Shown: positions 6,267-64,000, numbered from the stretch's first letter. The stretch is 64,000 nt of DNA from Eledone cirrhosa (GCA_964016885.1 OZ024740.1:167772001-167836000); one strand, 5' to 3'. The notes: generated by a model from the letters alone, not told the origin. Program-made: numbers and translations.

Positions 6267-8497
6267 TTAGCTACCAGTTCCTTTTCGTTTTTTTTCTAAA
6301 GCTACTTCCTTGGTAAATGCTATCAATTCTATTCTAATTGCTCTCTTTAGAGAGCTCCACCACCTGTTGTTGACGATCGCCCCCGTCAACTGACACTTAA
6401 CTAAGGTGCTAATCCGTTTACTGTAGGCCTTACGCGCCGGAAGCGACATGTTTAGCTTCCAGTATCCGGGTCCCTGTCTATGTGTTCTATCAATGTTGAC
6501 TACGTAGGTGACTAATTTGTGGTCTGAATAGGCAACCGTGTGCATTTGTGGACAGCTTCATGTGTCCTTATCTTTCTTTCTAATTAAAAGTCTATCTAAA
6601 TACGATCGAGAAGACCCAGTACGGTTGCTCCACGTCCACAGTGGTGCACTTGGGAAATCTAGTCGATATCTATCAGACAGTTGGAATTGGCTGATGAGAT
6701 TTTTTAGGTTATTACACCCCCTCTGTTATCCCAAGCTCCTACATAGTCCTAACGTGCATTTAATATGCCATTCCAGTCCCCCGCTAACACTAAGGAGCGA
6801 GACGTTCCCAAGAATGGCGCCAGACGCTTGAAGAACTATGGTCGCGATGTCCCAGTCGGGGTATATACGGCCACCAGGCTGAAAGCGCCACCTTCACTAC
6901 CTTTCACGTCCAGGACCACCAAGCTTCCCTCCGGGTCCAAGTGAATCGTTTGTGCTTTGAGATCCAATTTTTTTCGAAACAGAACAGCAACTCTCTCTCC
7001 ACCTCCTGGCTGACAGAGAGATGCGTAGATCTCAAAGTCATCGAACATGGGCGTTAGCTGCTGTCTGTCGTGAATCCTGGACTCGGTGATGGCTATCACA
7101 TCTATACAATGTGACCTGAGGTCATTTAAAAGCTGACCCTGTTTCCAGGTGAAGAAGAGTTAGGGAGAGAAAATGCGGGAACACTTACCTTTTCGTTTCC
7201 TGGAGGTCGGGTTGTTCGATTTCCATGTCCAGATTGGGGGTGTTTGGGGAGGGAGGGAATCCTTTTAGCAGGACACGGCTAAGGGTTTTTTGGCAGGGTC
7301 AGGGGGACACATCACGTGGGAAGGTCCCTTTCAATGTTTCATGTTGTAGGGTTGTTACCCTGATCAGTTTGAGGTGTAGGGGTGGGTCGTTGGTGGGGAA
7401 GGTTTTCCCTTCCATTTGGATAGTAGAGTCCTTTCGGACAGTGTCTACCAATTCTTTGTTTGTTGTTTTTATGTATGTGTAATGTGTTTTGTTTTTTATG
7501 CGTGCTGTTTCTGTTTGTAGTTTTCTTTTTGTGGTTGGGGTTTGTGATTGTGGTGGTGTGGGTGTTTGTTTTGTTGGTGAAGTGTTTGGTTGTGTTGGTG
7601 GTGATTATGTTGTTGATGTGTTTGTAATTTGTGGCGGTGTGTTTATGGTGGGGTTGGGTGTGTGCGTGTTTTCTGTAGATGTTTTTTGTTTTTGTGTTTT
7701 TTCTTGTCTCTTTTGTTTCTTGGATTTTTGGGCTTCCGCTTCATTTTCACTTGGAGATATAGAGGTTCCCGTGTCTGAGACTCTGAATCAAGTGTAGATG
7801 GGAGGGGTATGTTGTGTGGTGGAGTGTTTGTGCAGGTGTTTGTGGAAGTATTTGACAGGGAGAGAGGAGGCAATGGAGGGTTTTTCAGTGGGATTTTGTG
7901 TGTGGTTGTCTCTGGTCTGTGGTGGTGTGGGAGTGGATGTTGCAGGTTTTTGTGTTGTGTTTGGTTTGGGGTGTTGATGTTGGGGTTTTGGTGTTGGTAA
8001 TAAGACCTTGTTTATCCTCCGTTTGTTTAAGAGAGGGCAAAAGGCCTTTAAGTGTGTGGTTTTCCCACACTTATGGCACTGAGGTATTTTCCACTAGTAA
8101 GTCACGTGTTCAATTGCTTACAAGCAGCTGAAGCTTGCTCCGCTTCTAAATGTTCAGGCGATAATGTTGGCATTCCTTTGTCCATGTCTGAAACTACCTG
8201 CTGGTCAAGTAGGCATGGCTTTCCCTTCCCATCTTCTTGTATTGACAAAGAAGTAAGTGCCTTTGCTTCGGCCATGCTTTAAAAATTGCAAAAGTATTTT
8301 CGAAAATATGTTGGATGTTTTTGCTCTGAGGGGCACGATATTTTGGAAGACTGACCAGATCAAAATTTGACCTGTCAGTCCCTCTACACATTGGTATAAA
8401 AATAAAAGTTCACAATGACGAATTTCTAAAGAAATTTAAACAAAACTTACCGAGCAAGTTTAACACATGTGTCCATCCCAAATAGACAGATAGATAA

Positions 8498-27181: not shown

Positions 27182-27307
27182 AAGTTTTATTTAAATTGTT
27201 GGGTTACAACGAGTAAATATTTATAACTGATATAAAAGCACTCAACAAGTATTTGGAGTATATTTACGATATTAAATAAATGGAAACTATATTTATAAAA
27301 CCATATT

Positions 27308-27371
27308 TATTTCATTATATATTTCAGGGATATCATATTAAAAATATGGTATGCCTTCTTCAGACAAAATA
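27308..27371 (-). ncRNA. Type I hammerhead ribozyme (Penelope pLTR, sense to the GIY-YIG ORF)
   Basis: TATTTTGT-CTGAAGA-long stem II (AGG..CATATT TTT AATATG..CCT)-GAAA-TATAT-A^ATGAAATA. Confidence 0.75.
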
Positions 27372-27625
27372 CAATATAAACAGTCTTATAAATAGATAGA
27401 TTTGACATACCTTACAACTTCAACTTCCATTTAAAAAGTTGATTTGGTAGTGAAAATTGTTAGGGACAGTTATAAAAAGAAAGAAAGAAAAAAAGCGAAG
27501 AAAAAGAAGAAATGCATGCAACTAAATAGAGAGAGATAGATATAGAGAGATAGATAGAGAGAAGAAATTCATGTAAAGAAACAGAGAGAGAGATAGAGAG
27601 AGAAAAACCACAGAGGGAGATAGAT

Positions 27626-27657
<32 letters not shown>

Positions 27658-28762
27658 AAAAATAGAGAGAGATAGATATAGATAGAGATAGAGAGAAAGA
27701 AAATAGGTAGTTGGGCACCAGTTGAATGACGTATCAATGATATATTTATTTATTTATTTATTTGTTTAGTTCTAGTATTAAGGTAGAGAGAGATATATGT
27801 GGTTAGGAGAGAAAACAGCCGTTACATAGAGAGAAAAGAAAAATATCCAGATATAAACGAGGCAGATTTAAAACATTATGTTTCATCAATGTAAAAATAT
27901 CAATTCGTATGAATTAGGTATTATAATGTAAATATCAGTATTCATGAATGAGACACGTATCAATAATGTGTGAAAAATAATGATCATATGTCTAGTTTAA
28001 AATTCCTAGGTTTATATCAGAGTTGAGTTAAAAAACTGAGATAAAAAAACTGAGATAAAAAAAACTGAGATAAAAAACTAAGATAAAAAACTTCAAAAAA
28101 ATTGAAATACATAAGTATATATGCACTTTCATGAAAAAAGAAAAAGAAAAAGAAAATAGAAGGTTATCCCAGATTCGATACTATAGACTTCCATGTGAAT
28201 TTACGTGATCAACTCTGCAAATTCCTATTTCACATGAAAACATTCTCATTGTGCTATAAAAATTCTAGTATACATATATGTGTACATACACACAAATATA
28301 TATAGAATCTACATTAATTTTAACAATACTATTCTTGTCTTTACTCTACATGATTATCGTTCAAGCATAAATAGACAACAGATATCAATATATCAATAAA
28401 AATATCAAAAAATTAAAAAATATTAAAAATAAAACACAGTATGCCCCGCAAATCAACCCTTCAAAATTAATTGACAATATATTGCCAAGTTCATTATAAG
28501 CATCAGAATCAAAAGCAAACAAAACCAAAATTATTTACCAAATCCTGTCTAGCAGAAATCATTCCAAAAGTTTAGGATACCCATTTGATCTACAGATGGT
28601 CTTATATTTATTATAGAAGTTTATCTAGTGTAAAATTTATTCGATATATTTGGAGCATCAGCTTTTAGGGTAGTTTAATTATTCATGAAGAATGTTTAAA
28701 AAAAAGAAATCGAAAGATTTATCGGCGAGTTTCATAAATAATTATAAATCAAAGTAAATATA

Positions 28763-29184
28763 CTACATTTTAAATTTATATTTATATTTAAAAGTTGAGC
28801 AACTGAATAAATTTGTCCGTAAATTAAGGGAATTTTTAGATTTGAGTATAAAGAATATCTCCTCCGCGCAGAGGTCACATGTCTCAGAGGATGAATTAAA
28901 AGGAATCCCTCTTGAGACTATATTCCAAGCCGTCGAATATCCAACGTTATCATGCTTAAGTTGCCAGAGTAAGCCTGATAGTGATGTTGAAGATTTTTTG
29001 CTTGGATCTGTGAAAGAATTCTTGTGGTTATTATAGCGAAGTTTAAATTCTGTCGAGGTGGAACCAACATAGTTAAAAGAATTTAAGTCCGTTTTAACAT
29101 TACAGTTGTACATTATATTTTTAACTAAGCAATTGTTATTTAACGGACATTTAGATCTATCTCTACAGTTACATTTGTTTACTT
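28763..29184 (-). pseudogene. Penelope-like GIY-YIG endonuclease domain (N-terminally truncated)
   Basis: CNCRDRSKCPLNNNCLVKNIMY...NYVGSTSTEFKLRYNNHKNSF...CDLCAEE..ILK...LNLRT, the typical PLE linker plus GIY-YIG. Confidence 0.9.
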
Positions 29185-29431
29185 ATTGATATTTTTACAT
29201 TGATGAAACATAATGTTTTAAATCTGCCTCGTTTATATCTGGATATTTTTCTTTTCTCTCTATGTAACGGCTGTTTTCTCTCCTAACCACATATATCACT
29301 CTCTACCTTAATACTAGAACTAAATAAATAAATAAATAAATAAATATATCATTGATACGTCATTCAACTGGTGCCCAACTACCTATTTTCTTTCTCTCTA
29401 TCTCTATCTATATCTATCTCTCTCTATTTTT

Positions 29432-29465
<34 letters not shown>

Positions 29466-29723
29466 CTATCTATCTCCCTCTGTGTTTTTTCTCTCTCTAT
29501 CTATCTCTCTCTGTTTCTTTACATGAATTTCTTCTCTCTATCTATCTCTCTATATCTATCTCTCTCTATTTAGTTGCATGCATTTCTTCTTTTTCTTCGC
29601 TTTTTTTCTTTCTTTCTTTTTATAACTGTCCCTAACATTTTTCACTACCAAATCAACTTTTTAAATGGAAGTTGAAGTTGTAAGGTATGTCAAATCTATC
29701 TATTTATAAGACTGTTTATATTG

Positions 29724-29789
29724 TATTTTGTCTGAAGAAGGCATACCATATTTTTAATATGATATCCCTGAAATATATATAATGAAATA
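29724..29789 (+). ncRNA. Type I hammerhead ribozyme (inverted pLTR copy)
   Basis: Same as 27308-27371, with palindromic stem III TATATA and an AUA site. Confidence 0.75.
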
Positions 29790-29829
29790 AATATGGTTTT
29801 ATAAATATAGTTTCCATTTATTTAATATC

Positions 29830-29950
<121 letters not shown>

Positions 29951-35260: not shown

Positions 35261-35332
35261 ATCGGTGTATATTTGTGATGCACCATAGAACGTGTGTTTA
35301 CGTATGTCATTGTGTTTATATGTGGATAGAAA

Positions 35333-35946
35333 TGTCAGGTCACCAGTTGGTGCTACTAGTAACATGTATCCCAGTACAACCTGTCTCATGGTCGGGTCGT
35401 TGACGACTAAACTGGCAACCCCACCAAGGTTTCTTGGTGAGGAGGGTGACATTGGACATCCTGCAGGACTTAAAAACAAAACCTTTCAAAGGGCAAAGGG
35501 CAAAGGAGATCTTAAGAGTCAATGGCCATACAAAATCACCGGGAGATATGACCCCTTAGCCTTTGTCAAGGCAGAATTCTAGAAGGAAAACTCTGATATA
35601 ACACCTGCAACTCTGATGGTATCCAATGATGTTGACTTGTTCTTCTTTTTGGTAAATATCATCTTGGTTAAGAGAGTGGGACTGGCTTTGTGCAGTGCCT
35701 TTGCTCACTATAAAAGCTTCACGGCACAGGCATTGCTTTATATCTGGAGATCTCTCTGCACTTGTCGTCACATGGTACCATGGGCCCAGCACTACGTGTC
35801 AATAATTGTCACAAGTGTAGTGTTTGTACCAGAGTTTTCAAGTCGCTGGCTGGACTAAAGAGTCACACTCGTTCAGCGCATCGGTAGGAGTTCTCCTACA
35901 TGGATATAAAGTAGTGGCCGTACTCGAAAACGAGTTGGCAGCCACC
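35333..35946 (+). mobile_element. Bipartite non-autonomous RTE-derived element, copy 2
   Basis: 5'UTR-like head, APE remnant (ESGTGF), WRSLC, then HKCSVCTRVFKSLAGLKSHTRSAHR* (35810-35887) and a short 3'UTR into ATGT/TA repeats. Confidence 0.75.
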
Positions 35947-35977
35947 ATGTATGTATCTATGTATATATATATATATA

Positions 35978-36586
35978 TGTCAGGTCACCAGTTGCTGCTA
36001 CTGGTAACATGTATCCCAGTACAACCTGTCTCATGGTCGGGTCGTTGGCGACTAAACTGGCAAACCCACCAAGGTTTCTTGGTGAGGAGGGTGACTTTGG
36101 ACATCCTGCAGGACTAAAAACAAAACCTGTCAAGGGGCAAAGGAGCTCGTAAGAGTCAATGGCCATCCAAAATCACCGGGAGAGATGACCTCTTAGCCTT
36201 TGTCAAGGCAGAATTCTAGGAGAAGGAAAACTCTGATATAACACCTGCAACCCTGATGGTATCCAATGATGTTGACTTGTTCTTCTTTTTGGTAAATATC
36301 ATCTTGGTTAAGAGAGTGGGACTGGCTTTGTGCAGTGCCTTTGCTCACTATAAAAGCTTCACGGCACAGGCATTGCTTTATATCTGGAGATCTCTCTGCA
36401 CTTGTCATCACATGGTACCATGGGCCCAGCACTATGTGTCAATAATTGTCAGAAGTGTAGTGTTTGTACCAAAGTTTTCAAGTCGCTGGCTGGACTAAAA
36501 AGTCACACTCGTTCAGCGCATCGGTAGGGGTTCTCCTACATGGATATAAAGTAGTGGCCGTACTCGAAAACGAGTTGGCAGCCACC
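35978..36586 (+). mobile_element. Bipartite non-autonomous RTE-derived element, copy 3 (head-to-tail with copy 2)
   Basis: Highly similar to copy 2, separated by ~30 bp of microsatellite; remnant LCQGRILGEGKL...ESGTGF. Confidence 0.75.
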
Positions 36587-36600
36587 ATATATATATGTGG

Positions 36601-39310: not shown

Positions 39311-39396
<86 letters not shown>

Positions 39397-39445
39397 AAAT
39401 AAAGTTAAATAAAAGTCAAATGATTAAAATTTAGCTTCGTTTATT

Positions 39446-39500
39446 ACTGCTATATATATTTCAGTGACAGCCATCTTTGGCTGTGACCTCTTCAGGCAGT
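39446..39500 (-). ncRNA. Type I hammerhead ribozyme
   Basis: Exact inverted copy of 39639-39693. Confidence 0.85.
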
Positions 39501-39638
39501 TTGAATTAGTATGGTATAGTCATATGACTCCAGTTCCTCAGTGAATTAACAACCCAACAAGGAACTGGGTATATCAGAGTATTGACAATATTATACACCT
39601 AAACAACATATGTACTTGTCTATACCATACTAATTCAA

Positions 39639-39693
39639 ACTGCCTGAAGAGGTCACAGCCAAAGATGGCTGTCACTGAAATATATATAGCAGT
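39639..39693 (+). ncRNA. Type I hammerhead ribozyme
   Basis: ACTGC-CTGAAGA-GGTCACAGCC(AAAGAT)GGCTGTCACT-GAAA-TATATA-TA^GCAGT. Confidence 0.85.
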
Positions 39694-40126
39694 AATAAAC
39701 GAAGCTAAATTTTAATCATTTGACTTTTATTTAACTTTATTTTACACTACTCCGGAGTAACTAAACCAACCTGCGCACTTCGTCGAGTGCTCCAGCCTGC
39801 ATACTAAGGTGTTGATATACAACCAACATAAACTCAAAATATATATATATTTATATATATATATTCGTTACTGATTTTCGATAAAATCAATATCTTATTA
39901 TTCGATGTTTGAAAAAGCTGACAGGCGACAAGGAAGTGTAATTTCTGTTCTTTAATTATTGTGTATGCATAACAGGAAGCTTCAGAGAAAAAGTTATCCT
40001 TCATATTTGTGTGCGAGTACAGCAACAACATTCAGCAAACTTCTAGTACATTCATGTGTAAGCCTAAATATCTTAAACACGATCTCAAAAGATTTATATA
40101 TATATATATAGGTGTATATATAAGTG

Positions 40127-42104: not shown

Positions 42105-42153
42105 ACACCTTTAATCGATTTTCGAATCTAATTGGATCCTCTTCAGAAGGCGT
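42105..42153 (-). ncRNA. Type I hammerhead ribozyme (minimal, palindromic stem III)
   Basis: ACGCCTT-CTGAAGA-GGATC(CAATTA)GATTC-GAAA-ATCGAT-TA^AAGGTGT. Confidence 0.8.
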
Positions 42154-46608: not shown

Positions 46609-47798
<1,190 letters not shown>

Positions 47799-47909
47799 TT
47801 CCAGTTCCTCAGTGAAATAACAACCCGACCAGGAACTGGGCATATCAGAGTATTGACAATATTATACACCTCAACAACATATGTACTTGTCTATACCACA
47901 CTAATTCGG

Positions 47910-47964
47910 ACTGCCTGAAGAGGTCACAGCCAAAGATGGCTGTCACTGAAATATATATAGCACC
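47910..47964 (+). ncRNA. Type I hammerhead ribozyme, stem I partly mutated
   Basis: Same core as 39639-39693, but the 3' arm is GCACC instead of GCAGT; within family fragment 47799-48011. Confidence 0.7.
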
Positions 47965-48005
47965 AATAAACGAAGCTAAATTTTAAACATTTGACTTTTT
48001 ATTTA

Positions 48006-48032
<27 letters not shown>

Positions 48033-48044
<12 letters not shown>

Positions 48045-51000
48045 GATCGAGTATCGAAAAATCGGCGCACGAGTTAACGAAAAACGAAATCCGATATGAG
48101 CGGCAGAGGGCTCAATAATTCAGATGAATCAGAGCTATAACTATCGTTAAAATACCGTCACATATAGAACAAGTCTACAATCAACCATACGATTTAAAAT
48201 CGATAAAGGAAGATTCGGGCCAAACAGATAAAAAATATCAATAAAACAATACGTCAATAATTTAAATGAATGTAAAATCATACCCGGACCCACTAGAAAG
48301 GTGTTAAATCTAGCTTCATGGGTTTCTGTAAATCCTTAGACAGTACTCTATCAGCTCACATATAAATATAAAAGCCTACTAGAATAAGTGGAATGGAGTT
48401 TACGTTGTCAACGAGTTTTATCCTGGCGGCAAAGGAGTCAACTAGCGGTGAAAAACGCACATGGCATTAGATAGGGGAGATGACCCCTATATCCGCGAAA
48501 ATAATTCGAGTGAATGTGGAAATACACATATCGAATTAGAGTGCTCAATAGACATGTTAAAATAAAACAAAAGCTATTCATCACTCAATAGAATCGACAA
48601 AATATGAGCAATAAAATTAACTGGTGGATAGCTATGTCCAGAGCTAAATATATTAGAAAGATCGAGTATCGAAAAATCGGCGCACGAGTTAACGAAAAAC
48701 GAAATCCGATATGAGCGGCAGAGGGCTCAATAATTCAGATGAATCAGAGCTATAACTATCGTTAAAATACCGTCACATATAGAACAAGTCTACAATCAAC
48801 CATACGATTTAAAATCGATAAAGGAAGATTCGGGCCAAACAGATAAAAAATATCAATAAAACAATACGTCAATAATTTAAATGAATGTAAAATCATACCC
48901 GGACCCACTAGAAAGGTGTTAAATCTAGCTTCATGGGTTTCTGTAAATCCTTAGACAGTACTCTATCAGCTCACATATAAATATAAAAGCCTACTAGAAT
49001 AAGTGGAATGGAGTTTACGTTGTCAACGAGTTTTATCCTGGCGGCAAAGGAGTCAACTAGCGGTGAAAAACGCACATGGCATTAGATAGGGGAGATGACC
49101 CCTATATCCGCGAAAATAATTCGAGTGAATGTGGAAATACACATATCGAATTAGAGTGCTCAATAGACATGTTAAAATAAAACAAAAGCTATTCATCACT
49201 CAATAGAATCGACAAAATATGAGCAATAAAATTAACTGGTGGATAGCTATGTCCAGAGCTAAATATATTAGAAAGATCGAGTATCGAAAAATCGGCGCAC
49301 GAGTTAACGAAAAACGAAATCCGATATGAGCGGCAGAGGGCTCAATAATTCAGATGAATCAGAGCTATAACTATCGTTAAAATACCGTCACATATAGAAC
49401 AAGTCTACAATCAACCATACGATTTAAAATCGATAAAGGAAGATTCGGGCCAAACAGATAAAAAATATCAATAAAACAATACGTCAATAATTTAAATGAA
49501 TGTAAAATCATACCCGGACCCACTAGAAAGGTGTTAAATCTAGCTTCATGGGTTTCTGTAAATCCTTAGACAGTACTCTATCAGCTCACATATAAATATA
49601 AAAGCCTACTAGAATAAGTGGAATGGAGTTTACGTTGTCAACGAGTTTTATCCTGGCGGCAAAGGAGTCAACTAGCGGTGAAAAACGCACATGGCATTAG
49701 ATAGGGGAGATGACCCCTATATCCGCGAAAATAATTCGAGTGAATGTGGAAATACACATATCGAATTAGAGTGCTCAATAGACATGTTAAAATAAAACAA
49801 AAGCTATTCATCACTCAATAGAATCGACAAAATATGAGCAATAAAATTAACTGGTGGATAGCTATGTCCAGAGCTAAATATATTAGAAAGATCGAGTATC
49901 GAAAAATCGGCGCACGAGTTAACGAAAAACGAAATCCGATATGAGCGGCAGAGGGCTCAATAATTCAGATGAATCAGAGCTATAACTATCGTTAAAATAC
50001 CGTCACATATAGAACAAGTCTACAATCAACCATACGATTTAAAATCGATAAAGGAAGATTCGGGCCAAACAGATAAAAAATATCAATAAAACAATACGTC
50101 AATAATTTAAATGAATGTAAAATCATACCCGGACCCACTAGAAAGGTGTTAAATCTAGCTTCATGGGTTTTTGTAAATCCTTAGACAGTACTCTATCAGC
50201 TCACATATAAATATAAAAGCCTACTAGAATAAGTGGAATGGAGTTTACGTTGTCAACGAGTTTTATCCTGGCGGCAAAGGAGTCAACTAGCGGTGAAAAA
50301 CGCACATGGCATTAGATAGGGGAGATGACCCCTATATCCGCGAAAATAATTCGAGTGAATGTGGAAATACACATATCGAATTAGAGTGCTCAATAGACAT
50401 GTTAAAATAAAACAAAAGCTATTCATCACTCAATAGAATCGACAAAATATGAGCAATAAAATTAACTGGTGGATAGCTATGTCCAGAGCTAAATATATTA
50501 GAAAGATCGAGTATCGAAAAATCGGCGCACGAGTTAACGAAAAACGAAATCCGATATGAGCGGCAGAGGGCTCAATAATTCAGATGAATCAGAGCTATAA
50601 CTATCGTTAAAATACCGTCACATATAGAACAAGTCTACAATCAACCATACGATTTAAAATCGATAAAGGAAGATTCGGGCCAAACAGATAAAAAATATCA
50701 ATAAAACAATACGTCAATAATTTAAATGAATGTAAAATCATACCCGGACCCACTAGAAAGGTGTTAAATCTAGCTTCATGGGTTTCTGTAAATCCTTAGA
50801 CAGTACTCTATCAGCTCACATATAAATATAAAAGCCTACTAGAATAAGTGGAATGGAGTTTACGTTGTCAACGAGTTTTATCCTGGCGGCAAAGGAGTCA
50901 ACTAGCGGTGAAAAACGCACATGGCATTAGATAGGGGAGATGACCCCTATATCCGCGAAAATAATTCGAGTGAATGTGGAAATACACATATCGAATTAGA

Positions 51001-54000
51001 GTGCTCAATAGACATGTTAAAATAAAACAAAAGCTATTCATCACTCAATAGAATCGACAAAATATGAGCAATAAAATTAACTGGTGGATAGCTATGTCCA
51101 GAGCTAAATATATTAGAAAGATCGAGTATCGAAAAATCGGCGCACGAGTTAACGAAAAACGAAATCCGATATGAGCGGCAGAGGGCTCAATAATTCAGAT
51201 GAATCAGAGCTATAACTATCGTTAAAATACCGTCACATATAGAACAAGTCTACAATCAACCATACGATTTAAAATCGATAAAGGAAGATTCGGGCCAAAC
51301 AGATAAAAAATATCAATAAAACAATACGTCAATAATTTAAATGAATGTAAAATCATACCCGGACCCACTAGAAAGGTGTTAAATCTAGCTTCATGGGTTT
51401 CTGTAAATCCTTAGACAGTACTCTATCAGCTCACATATAAATATAAAAGCCTACTAGAATAAGTGGAATGGAGTTTACGTTGTCAACGAGTTTTATCCTG
51501 GCGGCAAAGGAGTCAACTAGCGGTGAAAAACGCACATGGCATTAGATAGGGGAGATGACCCCTATATCCGCGAAAATAATTCGAGTGAATGTGGAAATAC
51601 ACATATCGAATTAGAGTGCTCAATAGACATGTTAAAATAAAACAAAAGCTATTCATCACTCAATAGAATCGACAAAATATGAGCAATAAAATTAACTGGT
51701 GGATAGCTATGTCCAGAGCTAAATATATTAGAAAGATCGAGTATCGAAAAATCGGCGCACGAGTTAACGAAAAACGAAATCCGATATGAGCGGCAGAGGG
51801 CTCAATAATTCAGATGAATCAGAGCTATAACTATCGTTAAAATACCGTCACATATAGAACAAGTCTACAATCAACCATACGATTTAAAATCGATAAAGGA
51901 AGATTCGGGCCAAACAGATAAAAAATATCAATAAAACAATACGTCAATAATTTAAATGAATGTAAAATCATACCCGGACCCACTAGAAAGGTGTTAAATC
52001 TAGCTTCATGGGTTTCTGTAAATCCTTAGACAGTACTCTATCAGCTCACATATAAATATAAAAGCCTACTAGAATAAGTGGAATGGAGTTTACGTTGTCA
52101 ACGAGTTTTATCCTGGCGGCAAAGGAGTCAACTAGCGGTGAAAAACGCACATGGCATTAGATAGGGGAGATGACCCCTATATCCGCGAAAATAATTCGAG
52201 TGAATGTGGAAATACACATATCGAATTAGAGTGCTCAATAGACATGTTAAAATAAAACAAAAGCTATTCATCACTCAATAGAATCGACAAAATATGAGCA
52301 ATAAAATTAACTGGTGGATAGCTATGTCCAGAGCTAAATATATTAGAAAGATCGAGTATCGAAAAATCGGCGCACGAGTTAACGAAAAACGAAATCCGAT
52401 ATGAGCGGCAGAGGGCTCAATAATTCAGATGAATCAGAGCTATAACTATCGTTAAAATACCGTCACATATAGAACAAGTCTACAATCAACCATACGATTT
52501 AAAATCGATAAAGGAAGATTCGGGCCAAACAGATAAAAAATATCAATAAAACAATACGTCAATAATTTAAATGAATGTAAAATCATACCCGGACCCACTA
52601 GAAAGGTGTTAAATCTAGCTTCATGGGTTTCTGTAAATCCTTAGACAGTACTCTATCAGCTCACATATAAATATAAAAGCCTACTAGAATAAGTGGAATG
52701 GAGTTTACGTTGTCAACGAGTTTTATCCTGGCGGCAAAGGAGTCAACTAGCGGTGAAAAACGCACATGGCATTAGATAGGGGAGATGACCCCTATATCCG
52801 CGAAAATAATTCGAGTGAATGTGGAAATACACATATCGAATTAGAGTGCTCAATAGACATGTTAAAATAAAACAAAAGCTATTCATCACTCAATAGAATC
52901 GACAAAATATGAGCAATAAAATTAACTGGTGGATAGCTATGTCCAGAGCTAAATATATTAGAAAGATCGAGTATCGAAAAATCGGCGCACGAGTTAACGA
53001 AAAACGAAATCCGATATGAGCGGCAGAGGGCTCAATAATTCAGATGAATCAGAGCTATAACTATCGTTAAAATACCGTCACATATAGAACAAGTCTACAA
53101 TCAACCATACGATTTAAAATCGATAAAGGAAGATTCGGGCCAAACAGATAAAAAATATCAATAAAACAATACGTCAATAATTTAAATGAATGTAAAATCA
53201 TACCCGGACCCACTAGAAAGGTGTTAAATCTAGCTTCATGGGTTTCTGTAAATCCTTAGACAGTACTCTATCAGCTCACATATAAATATAAAAGCCTACT
53301 AGAATAAGTGGAATGGAGTTTACGTTGTCAACGAGTTTTATCCTGGCGGCAAAGGAGTCAACTAGCGGTGAAAAACGCACATGGCATTAGATAGGGGAGA
53401 TGACCCCTATATCCGCGAAAATAATTCGAGTGAATGTGGAAATACACATATCGAATTAGAGTGCTCAATAGACATGTTAAAATAAAACAAAAGCTATTCA
53501 TCACTCAATAGAATCGACAAAATATGAGCAATAAAATTAACTGGTGGATAGCTATGTCCAGAGCTAAATATATTAGAAAGATCGAGTATCGAAAAATCGG
53601 CGCACGAGTTAACGAAAAACGAAATCCGATATGAGCGGCAGAGGGCTCAATAATTCAGATGAATCAGAGCTATAACTATCGTTAAAATACCGTCACATAT
53701 AGAACAAGTCTACAATCAACCATACGATTTAAAATCGATAAAGGAAGATTCGGGCCAAACAGATAAAAAATATCAATAAAACAATACGTCAATAATTTAA
53801 ATGAATGTAAAATCATACCCGGACCCACTAGAAAGGTGTTAAATCTAGCTTCATGGGTTTCTGTAAATCCTTAGACAGTACTCTATCAGCTCACATATAA
53901 ATATAAAAGCCTACTAGAATAAGTGGAATGGAGTTTACGTTGTCAACGAGTTTTATCCTGGCGGCAAAGGAGTCAACTAGCGGTGAAAAACGCACATGGC

Positions 54001-54919
54001 ATTAGATAGGGGAGATGACCCCTATATCCGCGAAAATAATTCGAGTGAATGTGGAAATACACATATCGAATTAGAGTGCTCAATAGACATGTTAAAATAA
54101 AACAAAAGCTATTCATCACTCAATAGAATCGACAAAATATGAGCAATAAAATTAACTGGTGGATAGCTATGTCCAGAGCTAAATATATTAGAAAGATCGA
54201 GTATCGAAAAATCGGCGCACGAGTTAACGAAAAACGAAATCCGATATGAGCGGCAGAGGGCTCAATAATTCAGATGAATCAGAGCTATAACTATCGTTAA
54301 AATACCGTCACATATAGAACAAGTCTACAATCAACCATACGATTTAAAATCGATAAAGGAAGATTCGGGCCAAACAGATAAAAAATATCAATAAAACAAT
54401 ACGTCAATAATTTAAATGAATGTAAAATCATACCCGGACCCACTAGAAAGGTGTTAAATCTAGCTTCATGGGTTTCTGTAAATCCTTAGACAGTACTCTA
54501 TCAGCTCACATATAAATATAAAAGCCTACTAGAATAAGTGGAATGGAGTTTACGTTGTCAACGAGTTTTATCCTGGCGGCAAAGGAGTCAACTAGCGGTG
54601 AAAAACGCACATGGCATTAGATAGGGGAGATGACCCCTATATCCGCGAAAATAATTCGAGTGAATGTGGAAATACACATATCGAATTAGAGTGCTCAATA
54701 GACATGTTAAAATAAAACAAAAGCTATTCATCACTCAATAGAATCGACAAAATATGAGCAATAAAATTAACTGGTGGATAGCTATGTCCAGAGCTAAATA
54801 TATTAGAAAGATCGAGTATCGAAAAATCGGCGCACGAGTTAACGAAAAACGAAAACCGATATGAGCGGCAGAGGGCTCAATAATTCAGATGAATCAGAGC
54901 TATAACTATCGTTAAAATA
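48033..54919. repeat. Tandem array, 11.2 copies of a 615-bp unit, flanked by (TA)n
   Basis: GAAAGATCGAG recurs at 48041, 48656, 49271 ... 54806 (step 615). Only two substitutions noticed (50171, 54855). No ORF of 60 aa or more. Confidence 0.98.
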
Positions 54920-56865: not shown

Positions 56866-57750
56866 GAGCATTAAGCCTGTCGGACCGATTTAGTTTGACC
56901 GTAAGGCTTAAGAAGTCGAATAAAAGTGGAAGCGGATTTATCTTGAACTAGCCAGTGAGTGCCATTTTACTACCTAGTCCTTTCGCTATCAAGCCATTTT
57001 CCCATTTAGCCATCTAGAAACATTTAACCTAGCTATCCAAACTATCCGAACAATCCGCCTTACCAATATTGTAAGCTGGCTGGCCTGTCAGCTTATCCAG
57101 GATCGTAATGGTTTCAATAAATTTTCTATTATGTATTCACATGTATTCCCCCGTCCCAAAGAAAGAAGCCTGAACCAACTCCTCTAAACTCCGTCACGTT
57201 AATTCGTTCTGTATGAAATTAGATTTCAGTTGCCAACGTCGATTAAATGTGTAAAATCAGTAACTGGGTCAATAAAAATCCGTGTCGTTACTCATTCAGA
57301 GTACGTCTTGACTTGGTATAATTAATCTTTTCCTTATAGCTAACTAAATGGACTTTCTTCGGCATATCGTGCAATGTCTTTAGCTCACCGTCATCACCCA
57401 AATAATATACATCTTTCTTCGGTTTTTTGTTCTATCCTACCCAAACCAGAAATGGCATTGCTCTTTTCGGTATCGCTCTCCATTTCCCCACACTCACACG
57501 GACATCATTGGCTAGTGTTAAATAGTTTAGGTGTAAGCTAAGACTTTGTTATAAAAGATCCTGCTAGTGGCTCATGTGGTTGGAGTAAGTTATGGTGGTG
57601 GTGGTGGTGGTGGTGGTTTCCGTCCTTTTTTTTGGCTTAGCGTGTGTGTCTGTCAATGTTGTCGACGGGGATGATAGCAATGTCTACGGTGGTGACACTG
57701 GCGGTGGCAGGTGGATGATATATATTTAGATATACCTGAATAGGGAGTTA

Positions 57751-57786
<36 letters not shown>

Positions 57787-57859
57787 ATCATATGTATATA
57801 TATATATATATATATAAGAGGGTGTTAAAGTTTGCTTGAAGCATTGTGAAATGTGTAAA

Positions 57860-58371
57860 ATACGTAGTTAAGAAAGCCACAACAATGCAGAGGGGAATCT
57901 CGAGGTAGGAAGTGAATGATAGATAGGAGAAACAGGTGAAAGTGAAAATTGAGAGAGACAAAGATGAAAACAAAACAAAGGTAGAAGGGTTACCGTAGTG
58001 AAGATTTAATCCCAATATTTCGGGCTCACGCCCATCAACGGGGGAAAAGTTCCAAAAGGCGGGGAACAGGCCAAGCGGAGAAAGTTGTGATGTCGTTAAG
58101 ACAGGAATGCCGTTATGACGGCATTCCTGTCTTAACGACATCACAACTTTCTCCGCTTGGCCTGTTCCCCGCCTTTTGGAACTTTTCCCCCGTTGATGGG
58201 CGTGAGCCCGAAATATTGGGATTAAATCTTCACTACGGTAACCCTTCTACCTTTGTTTTGTTTTCATCTTTGTCTCTCTCAATTTTCACTTTCACCTGTT
58301 TCTCCTATCTATCATTCACTTCCTACCTCGAGATTCCCCTCTGCATTGTTGTGGCTTTCTTAACTACGTAT
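57860..58371. repeat. Perfect palindrome, 254-bp arms with a 4-nt loop, in (TA)n context
   Basis: Centre CGT-TATG-ACG at 58111-58120; ORFs on the two strands are identical except at the loop. Confidence 0.95.
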
Positions 58372-58389
58372 ATATATATATATACATAT

Positions 58390-58444
<55 letters not shown>

Positions 58445-58454
<10 letters not shown>

Positions 58455-58455
58455 C

Positions 58456-58516
<61 letters not shown>

Positions 58517-60884: not shown

Positions 60885-61870
60885 TTTTTTTTTGTTTTTT
60901 TTTTGTTTTTTTCTTATCGTAGGCGCCTGAGGATTACCCTCAGTAGCGGTAGACTGGCGTGTGGGAGTCGCACGAGCTCATCCATGCTGGAGCCGAGTTG
61001 GTGGTGATAACAATCCACCATCAAGGCCGGACATCTCAGCCAAAGATGTTCGGAGGATTCTTCTTCCTCTCCGCACAGACGACATGTGTTGATTTCCGCT
61101 TGGCCGATCATATGAAGCCATCTCCTTAATGACATTTGATGTCCTCTGCGGAAGCGGACGAGATGTTTCCTATCTGCTTTGGAGAGAGTTTGCTCACTCT
61201 CTTCATTTGGGTGGCGGCTAAAGACTGATTGTAGACGTTGATGCTGGATCGGTGGTGGGCGAAATTCCCGGCGGGTAGCGGCATCGATTGAACTTTTCAG
61301 TTGAGTAGATGCTGAGCCTTGTTTCGCCTGGGCGTCCGCCAGTTCATTCCCGGGACCCAGACAGCTGCTAAGGTTCTCCCCTTTGTGATGTTGTTAGTGA
61401 TCCCTTGCAGTTCGGTAATGAAAGGGTCATGGGGGAAGGGGTTGTTGACTGCTTGAACCAGCGACTTGCAGTCACAGATGACATTGGAGGACTCCCAGCT
61501 GGTGTCTGCCTGTAACCCTAGGCGGGCTTGTTTGATGCAATTCTTTCGGAATGAAAGGAACTGATACGAGCGCCCGTGGGAGAGTGCCACTCGTGAGCTA
61601 CCTCTTCATTTTTGATGATTACGAGACCGGCACCGCCATTGGTTGTACCGTCGGATGTTGATCCATCTGTATACACGCAAATGTCGACCGGGGGGAGTGT
61701 TGATAGATGATCCAGTGCCGCTTTAAGTTGTAGTGCTACTGGCATTGATTTGTTCACCGGGGTAAAGGTAGCAGGGATTGGTGCTGGTAATTCCCACGGC
61801 GGCTTCTTATGTGGTAGTTGGGTGTCTGTTGTCGAGTGTATGCCAAGAGGATCAAGGGCTGGCAGCTGTC
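60885..61870 (-). mobile_element. 5'-truncated RNase H-bearing LINE (I-group/Ingi-like) with A-rich tail
   Basis: RNase H motifs VYTDGS...GGAG...SSFHSE, ICDCKSLV, VWVPG; knuckle CRLCGEEEESSEHLWLRC; stop at 60914 followed by poly(A). Confidence 0.85.
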
Positions 61871-62044
61871 TACATCTGTTGTGGTTGTTGTTACTGATGT
61901 TGTTGTTTTTGTTGTTTTTGATGTTTGTGTTGTTTTTGCTTAGCCATAGGGTAAGCTCTGACGGAGAAAACCAATGATCGAGCGCATTTTATTCATGTTC
62001 ATCGCGTGTATGTTTTTCAGACATATAGGACTGCACTAAATAAT

Positions 62045-63422: not shown

Positions 63423-63429
<7 letters not shown>

Positions 63430-64000
63430 AATTAGTATATCTACCAACATATGTATACAGATGCATACCTATGCTAGCAAATATATATATGTTATGTCTT
63501 AGTAACTTTGTGGTTCTAGGCAAGGGGATGCAGAACAATTATATGAAAGACGTAAATAAGAAAATTATGAAAATCGACTTACTTACTAAAATTTCACTCC
63601 GACTAATTAGTTTCTGTAAGGGAATAAATATGGTTACGTAACGTACCCACAGAGAAACCTTACGTCATCAGGGAGTCTATTCTCAGCTAAGCTTCCAGGC
63701 AATGCGAGGACACTGGGAACTTATATAAAAATAATTCAGTGGAAGGAAAAAAGCGAGCGGGGACTAAATTCCAAGACATTGAAAAAATTCACTGCCTACT
63801 TGGTCAGTGGCAAATTCAAAAGAATAAATCACGTGACACTGAGGTTAATCAGTGAGGAGTGGAGTGCTATTAAGACAAGGGCCTAGCCACTACCATGAAC
63901 CACAGTAGTAATTTCGGCAAGTTTTGCTCAACAAATAATTTGGAGATAATTATAAAGAATTAGTATATCTACCAACATATGTATACAGATGCATACCTAT
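63423..64000 (-). mobile_element. HHR-bearing tandem unit (period 528 bp) starting at (TA)n and running off the window
   Basis: TATAAAGAATTAGTATATCTACCAACATATGTATACAGATGCATACCTAT at 63423 and 63951. Confidence 0.75.
63596..63676 (-). ncRNA. Type I hammerhead ribozyme with extended stem II
   Basis: ACTCC-CTGATGA-cGTAAGG[...]CCTTACa-GAAA-CTAATTAG-TC^GGAGT. Confidence 0.85.

Follow-up and report, generated by a model that had tools for sequence, protein, structure and literature searches.

Metazoan non-LTR retrozymes (PMC7229834; bioRxiv 10.64898/2026.07.22.740005) are non-coding tandem units with one type I hammerhead per unit, built on a C3-G8 core with a canonical helix II of 4 bp and a helix III of 1-2 bp. 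Their units range from 51 to 972 bp in Li et al. 2026 (bioRxiv 10.64898/2026.07.22.740005), and the circles described by Cervera and de la Pena 2020 (PMC7229834) measure 170-400 nt. Of nine Xenopus retrozyme dimers, one was cleaved in vitro (bioRxiv 2026.07.22.740005). Minimal hammerheads of Penelope-like elements (PLEs) cleave poorly or slowly; large helices III are known in fungal and protist PLEs. PLEs of the Hydra clade have (TA)n targets and 3' hammerheads (PMC8557442), and internal initiation and AT-rich targets are described for an anole PLE (PMC11167929). The U3-A8 core is a natural covariant stated to be active in vitro (PMC3088659), with about 1,300 matches in S. mansoni (PMC4209133). 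In that species, the motifs of the Cercyon PLE are minimal, have no real helix III and a helix II of 7-8 bp, and are thought to depend on dimers (PMC4209133).

The locus considered here belongs to a 64,000-nt stretch of Eledone cirrhosa DNA (the window, i.e. the whole stretch analysed), which is AT-rich, microsatellite-rich and crowded with retroelement debris. It contains a tandem array of a 615-bp unit that is non-coding, no frame between stops exceeding 62 aa, and carries a type I hammerhead in one unit after another, which is the sequence definition of a retrozyme. The unit length falls within the range of Li et al. and, as for non-LTR retrozymes, the array shares its surroundings with PLE remains. 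The unit is nevertheless longer than the published circles, its core is U3-A8 instead of C3-G8, and its helices II and III extend over 76 and 36 nt. This likeness is read from sequence, with both circles and cleavage predicted. The array likely represents a non-LTR retrozyme, that is, a non-autonomous Penelope-like element.

In the modelled folds, each 615-bp unit carries a U3-A8 type I hammerhead with a long helix II, for which self-cleavage is predicted; the parse itself is held with very high confidence. A sequence-only reading had instead taken CUGAUAGA for an atypical core on the same strand. The parts of the corrected parse are listed for copy 1, together with the other features on which the argument depends.

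48036..54919, minus strand: tandem array, 11 complete units of 615 bp and a partial one of 119 bp (11.2 units), with (TA)n runs on both sides
48282..48416, minus strand: type I hammerhead of copy 1, repeated at +615 n (n = 0-10); the descriptor matches 10 of 11 copies
48412..48416, minus strand: 5' strand of helix I, ACUCG, paired with 48286-48282
48405..48411, minus strand: core positions 3-9, UUGACAA (U3-A8), with N7 at 48407; 57 nt upstream of CUGAUAGA
48404, minus strand: extra C after A9 (position 9a), facing an extra A (48327) before G12, the two forming a C-A mismatch at the foot of helix II
48328..48403, minus strand: helix II, an interrupted hairpin of 76 nt whose first pair is G10.1-C11.1, with CUGAUAGA in its 3' arm
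48323..48326, minus strand: G12, A13, A14 and A15.1, the sole GAAA used by either parse
48288..48323, minus strand: helix III, six proximal pairs plus a distal hairpin
48286..48287, minus strand: predicted cut after C17, by analogy with hammerhead numbering
48282..48286, minus strand: 3' strand of helix I, CGGGU
48216..48220, minus strand: candidate off-switch stretch, which would pair with the 3' strand of helix I in longer folds
50171, minus strand: G12-to-A change, private to copy 4
63596..63676, minus strand: related hammerhead with a C3-G8 core, from another tandem family (528-bp unit), the covariation partner

UUGACAA, GAAA and GUC occur together in 10 of the 11 copies, in agreement with the type I core (Y3-U-G-A-N-R8-A with a Watson-Crick 3:8 pair); copy 4 is predicted to be inactivated by its G12A change. 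Three helices surround the core, with helix I open, and the proximal pairs of helices I, II and III number 5, 5 and 6. Helix II starts after one extra C with GUAAA, paired with UUUAC on the 5' side of the extra A and GAAA. It does not stand directly beside A9 and G12, as the strict filter of Perreault asks, since one extra base intervenes on each side. Nor does helix III, with its six proximal pairs and distal hairpin, belong to the minimal PLE type, where it is missing or has 1-2 bp and a palindromic loop. The blocks follow one another in the order C-G-S of an ordinary type I hammerhead without pseudoknots, unlike the SGC and CSG hammerheads of Eckert 2023 (PMC10085705), whose idea of separated blocks prompted the corrected parse. 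Permuted arrangements (SGC, CSG, GCS) were considered by eye and dropped, the order being C-G-S and the type I parse fitting; a twister reading, also by eye, was dropped once that parse fitted.

Every unusual feature of this hammerhead is found in print. With the U3-A8 hammerheads (PMC3088659, PMC4209133) it shares the UUGANAA core, the extra base after A9, the G10.1-C11.1 pair and a short helix I; in contrast to the Cercyon motifs (PMC4209133), its helix III is stable and an extra base precedes G12. With the hammerheads of Hydra-clade and Chara PLEs it shares a position near the 3' end and (TA)n, which is a target of those elements and lies on both sides of the one array described here (PMC8557442). 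File S2 of that source likewise has helices II flanked at their foot by a base on each side that is unpaired or mismatched, U-U in most Hydra rows and, as in the unit, C-A in PLE-X1_cBra; the rows of that file all have a CUGANGA core, unlike the unit, and none has a 76-nt helix II. A narrow literature search found no paper on this combination of features, and none on an animal retroelement whose helix II has 76 nt.

Folding calculations agree with the parse. The three-way junction is both the free minimum-energy structure and the centroid of 48278-48424, and forcing it on 48260-48440 gives -34.2 against a free minimum of -35.6 kcal/mol, a cost of 1.4. The helix II hairpin is already visible in the fold of the whole unit (z = -2.1; 5 of 200 shuffles fold as well), and the first four pairs of helix III form with a probability of about 0.7-0.8, so that helix III is predicted by these models to be stable enough for a monomer. 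The 147-nt span as a whole is no more stable than its own shuffles (z = -0.52). A distal helix I beyond a 3x3 loop appears in one of two tied folds, and no tertiary contact between helices I and II could be assigned.

The fold is also supported by covariation between two families. A second tandem family occupies 63424-64000, with a 528-bp unit that starts at a (TA)n run and is stopped by the window end. Its hammerhead is built on the same plan and has a palindromic helix III, and this family has a long hairpin at its 3' end. By BLAST, the 615-bp and 528-bp units have no similarity. When the two hammerheads are aligned by core numbering, double changes preserve the pairs I.1 (G-C/C-G), 3:8 (U-A/C-G), II.5 (A-U/G-C), III.3 and III.4, with a one-sided change at I.3 and one pair lost at II.6. 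The extra C-A pair of bases is common to both, and identity by blocks is 16/27, 10/11 and 12/18.

Variation in public sequencing runs bears on the same question. Part of the unit is contained in 17 of the 24 listed runs (13 studies), with no RNA run among those listed, which speaks neither for nor against expression; reads of eight of the 24 were placed on the unit, and four cover it almost throughout. From X12, X13 and X14 came only short pieces, all of them outside the ribozyme; X18 yielded 0 reads from about 1% of the run. Counts were made on 40 listed of 50 substitution rows. None of these 40 variants falls in the 42 fixed positions of the core and proximal helices (hypergeometric P = 0.054), and the two located at the core concern free positions, N7 (48407, varying in X3 and X6) and 9a (48404, varying in X3, X6 and X11). 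All six listed variants of distal helix II keep or lower its energy (-1.4, -2.6, 0, -2.3, -0.3 and -0.6 kcal/mol); a third of all single changes score zero or better, which gives P of about 0.001-0.004 for six, and five of the six appear, from their equal depth, to lie on one X6 contig and hence not to be independent. When the X6 changes (depth 3) are combined, all three helices are kept, at -37.7 against -31.6 kcal/mol. In X3, for which changes at plus-strand C are fully listed, G5, G10.1, G12, G2.1 and G16.2 are free of variants at or above 1%, and the change G12A of copy 4, absent from all four listed C>T rows, is thus private. Of the X3 rows, one A>G and one T>C lie outside the listed 40 and may be changes at U3, U4, A8 or A9; a C3-G8 subfamily may exist among the X3 variants. 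The variant at 48420 (30% in X3) breaks one pair of the predicted distal helix I. Collectively, the sparing of the core and helices by the listed variants, and their covariation in the two families, point to selection on the fold.

Near-identical pieces of the unit were also noticed under 14 organism labels, mostly at a depth of 2-15 in the runs whose reads were placed, and are missing from other runs of the same label; they may come from trace DNA, related species or horizontal transfer. Minority letters of the window in X3 have no clear A-to-G bias, with A>G and T>C each counted six times, and RNA editing of the unit is accordingly not claimed.

The weak point of the predicted ribozyme is helix I, which is marginal in the models. 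Short constructs give its pairs a probability of 0.52-0.66, and in local folds ACUCG pairs with CGGGU at 0.58-0.63; the other windows tried never exceed 0.20, and the value for the whole unit or circle is 0.01. Once the RNA extends to 48150, CGGGU pairs with 48216-48220 at 0.97-0.98. In a construct four bases longer the active fold is tied with an inactive one, and in the 615-nt circle it costs 2.8 kcal/mol.

Taken together, a type I U3-A8 hammerhead within a likely non-autonomous Penelope-type element, copied from one RNA template into (TA)n, is the reading that can be put forward with good confidence. Two of its components are more modestly graded: useful self-cleavage of the unit hammerhead is rather probable, and rolling-circle copying by a PLE enzyme, proposed by analogy, is probable to about the same degree. 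The predicted array RNA corresponds to the minus strand, and its 3' end would lie near 48036. Read-through transcription of this strand would yield an RNA that every intact ribozyme would cut, releasing 615-nt monomers, for which the stable helix III may make a dimer unnecessary, and the monomers would then be ligated into circles. In the circle, helix I would be trapped by 48216-48220, and the circle thereby spared re-cutting. A Penelope-type protein with reverse transcriptase and GIY-YIG domains would nick (TA)n and begin the copy at a point 251 nt downstream of the cut site, and the reverse transcriptase would go round the circle about 11.2 times.

It is tempting to go further and propose a giant type I hammerhead that is active as a monomer and cuts only during transcription, is then turned off in the 615-nt circle by the conserved downstream pairing, and has a helix II (76 nt, with its C-A mismatch) under selection, the circle being copied 11 times by a Penelope reverse transcriptase from a start 251 nt past the cut. 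This fuller scheme is tentative and on present grounds doubtful. If true, the long helix II would serve a separate function, e.g. as a protein handle.

The alternative that survives best, although rather unlikely, accepts the U3-A8 parse and holds that the ribozyme is dormant or very slow alone, either needing a Penelope protein or being merely carried, so that spread proceeds from uncut multimeric RNA. The loss of helix I to other pairings in all long folds and the C-A mismatch adjoining the core speak in its favour, as do eight uncleaved dimers among the nine from Xenopus (bioRxiv 2026.07.22.740005) and the anole PLE, whose insertion in vitro is independent of hammerhead cleavage, with protein assistance suggested (PMC11167929). 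This alternative sits poorly with a core and helices that are spared by the listed variants and covary, and with a stable helix III as in a fungal PLE hammerhead that cleaves as a monomer.

The 11 full units differ by a single substitution, C>T at 50171, and the partial copy adds one at 54855. At 11 places, more than half of the X3 depth has another letter and all 11 copies nevertheless carry the letter of the window (a twelfth such place lies at 0.50 of depth), which indicates that the array descends from one template. Both ends adjoin (TA)n at TA-like letters of the unit, and the minus-strand 3' end lies 251 nt downstream of the predicted cut site; the 528-bp family has the same end layout, at 177 nt. 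This one locus has (TA)n on both sides, and the depth in X3 is very high; summed over the unit it reaches 1e4-2e5, which is not a copy number, a single-copy control being absent. A linear cut monomer offers only about 250 nt from the start; to reach 11.2 units, the template must be a circle or an uncut multimer, or else the enzyme must jump between templates or the array must have grown later at the DNA level. The circle route is preferred, by analogy, over the other three.

Growth at the DNA level is the basis of the next alternative, which is distinctly unlikely. Here the ribozyme is real, and the 11.2-copy array arose by unequal crossover from a short insertion, or owes its length and purity partly to the assembly. 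Unequal crossover is the accepted route to such arrays according to Li et al. (bioRxiv 2026.07.22.740005), and near-perfect identity between copies fits an RNA or a DNA route alike. Against this alternative stand the position of both ends, at (TA)n and at TA-like letters, the private changes at 50171 and 54855, which oppose a full collapse of the assembly, and the head-to-tail joints between units in three independent public runs (X2, X3 and X11).

For the preferred reading, copying of one RNA template by a Penelope-type enzyme, no autonomous partner or partner open reading frame was identified in the window. Compared with six other repeats of the window, the 615-bp unit matches none. A term search of the Craig supplement (PMC8557442) found none of four motifs of the unit's family at a ribozyme, so that no family listed there is shown as a partner. 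The first 120 bp of the unit (48036-48156) are deeper than the rest in X2, X3 and X6 and continue into another sequence at 48156. This loose end adjoins unit position 119, where the partial copy of the array stops, and may reflect a subfamily, a relative or a 3' end shared with a partner element. Searches of the unit with consensus sequences found neither Pol III A and B boxes nor a PSE-like motif; one TATAAAT lies at 48361 on the plus strand.

The third alternative, now highly improbable, restores the core of the sequence-only reading, with CUGAUAGA as an inserted-base core (A6a-like), a short helix II and a helix I of 1 bp. That reading was right on much: the letters that it quoted are present at 48279-48363 on the minus strand, and the motif recurs every 615 bp in 11 copies. 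Its helix III (A15.1-U16.1 plus five pairs), its GUC site and its cut between 48287 and 48286, the latter set by hammerhead numbering, are retained here. It also noted correctly that TTACAGAAAC is common to the unit motif and the hammerhead at 63596-63676, and that the variant at 50171 turns the G of GAAA, i.e. G12, into A in copy 4. A minus-strand hammerhead akin to the one at 63596-63676 therefore stands; the atypical core with a weak helix I does not. CUGAUAGA (48354-48347) is located in the 3' arm of the long hairpin, whose closing pairs have a probability of 0.85-0.96, and stem I ceases to be weak once the corrected 5' core block supplies a helix I of 5 bp.

Some observations fit CUGAUAGA as a core, which precedes GUA..UAC-A-GAAA, has none of its eight positions among the 40 listed variants, and would resemble a known insertion after A6 with low activity. 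The energetic evidence is opposed. Forced on 48260-48440, the first parse gives -18.8 or -13.3 kcal/mol, 15-21 kcal/mol worse than the corrected fold. The pair probabilities of its helices I and II are 0.00, both in 48260-48440 and in the whole unit. Its helix I consists of one pair followed by A-G and G-G at the second and third positions, and has no counterpart in the helix I of 63596-63676. Matches at its level (relaxed core, with at least 1, 3 and 6 pairs in helices I, II and III) occur in 42 of 10,000 shuffles, and a narrower descriptor is matched by 5-12 of 3,000. No deletion making CUGAUAGA into CUGAUGA is listed in any of the four runs, and the exact patterns of this parse have 0 matches in viral contigs and 0 in metagenome contigs.

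The remaining evidence concerns the chance level of the corrected U3-A8 parse. Its descriptor (four core patterns, loops up to 130 nt) was composed after the motif had been seen. Among 10,000 dinucleotide shuffles of the unit, none reaches the motif at 5/5/6 pairs, none reaches 5/5/4, and two reach 4/4/4. Rfam, searched with the window, the unit and the 63.6-kb motif, returned no hammerhead family among the matches listed (150 of 173 for the window), and it also misses the C3-G8 hammerhead at 63596-63676. A pattern search for the UUGACAA core in metagenome contigs supplied 120 loci of an estimated 320, none of them like the unit by BLAST. Chosen by core letters alone, one of the 120 has helices I and III of at least 4 pairs, and the core matches were treated as chance since the other 119 lack them. 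The one exception, a minus-strand match at 701-786 of its locus, has 5/4/6 pairs around a U3-A8 core; its helix I is mostly G-U, it has no similarity to the unit, and it is probably due to chance. For the unit hammerhead itself, chance resemblance in a satellite repeat, to which the missing Rfam match and the descriptor composed after the fact would lend some credit, is next to impossible in view of the shuffles, the single metagenome locus with such helices and the covariation with an independent 528-bp family.

The sequence-only reading had offered a new core variant, an inactive relic or chance; none of these describes it best, since the core is the known U3-A8 one and the type I fold around it is enlarged. 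The claim of a new core falls away, and what remains is a large predicted hammerhead that is well supported. Rfam and descriptors restricted to a short helix II or to C3-G8 miss it, so that counts of animal retrozymes are likely too low. If the unit hammerhead cleaves as a monomer, the known architecture of animal type I hammerheads is widened. Together with its C3-G8 relative with a palindromic helix III, 9 kb away, it would form a natural pair for the passage from dimer-dependent to monomeric cleavage. An array of 11 copies from a single template, in which one copy is predicted to be dead and which ends 251 nt from the cut, is a handy test substrate, and it is suited to testing the proposed rolling-circle reverse transcription of retrozymes by Penelope enzymes.

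Other features of the window deserve mention, which holds at least five separate hammerhead-like families. Inverted repeats at 27259-27904 and 29185-29838 flank a frame of 139 aa (28763-29182, minus strand), which by its motifs looks like a Penelope GIY-YIG end and has no Pfam match. Minimal hammerhead-like motifs start nearby, at 29732 (plus) and 27363 (minus). A third family, at 39368-39744 and 47797-48038, has a minimal CUGAAGA hammerhead with a helix III of TA repeats; it includes an inverted pair at 39495 (minus) and 39644 (plus), and a copy at 47915 (plus) that has a shortened helix I and faces the 615-bp array across the same (TA)n run. Further matches to the type I descriptor, with 6-8 pairs in helix I, are located at 42146 (minus), 42716 (minus), 10779 (plus) and 21350 (plus).

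A repeat of about 650 bp occurs in three copies, two of them in tandem (1342-1946, plus; 35302-36596, minus). UUGACAA is present in two copies, with a hairpin holding GAAAC, and another parse may apply; the U3-A8 type I match at 35569 was rejected, its GAAA being lost in the two other copies. Protein fragments of non-LTR retrotransposons (zf-RVT, with weak endonuclease and RNase H matches below the cut-off) are found at 45-1078, 6836-7159 and 60914-61988. Finally, a long inverted repeat lies between (TA)n runs at 57718-58495; its arms of about 300 bp join head to head around 58115, and it resembles an inverted PLE-type insertion.
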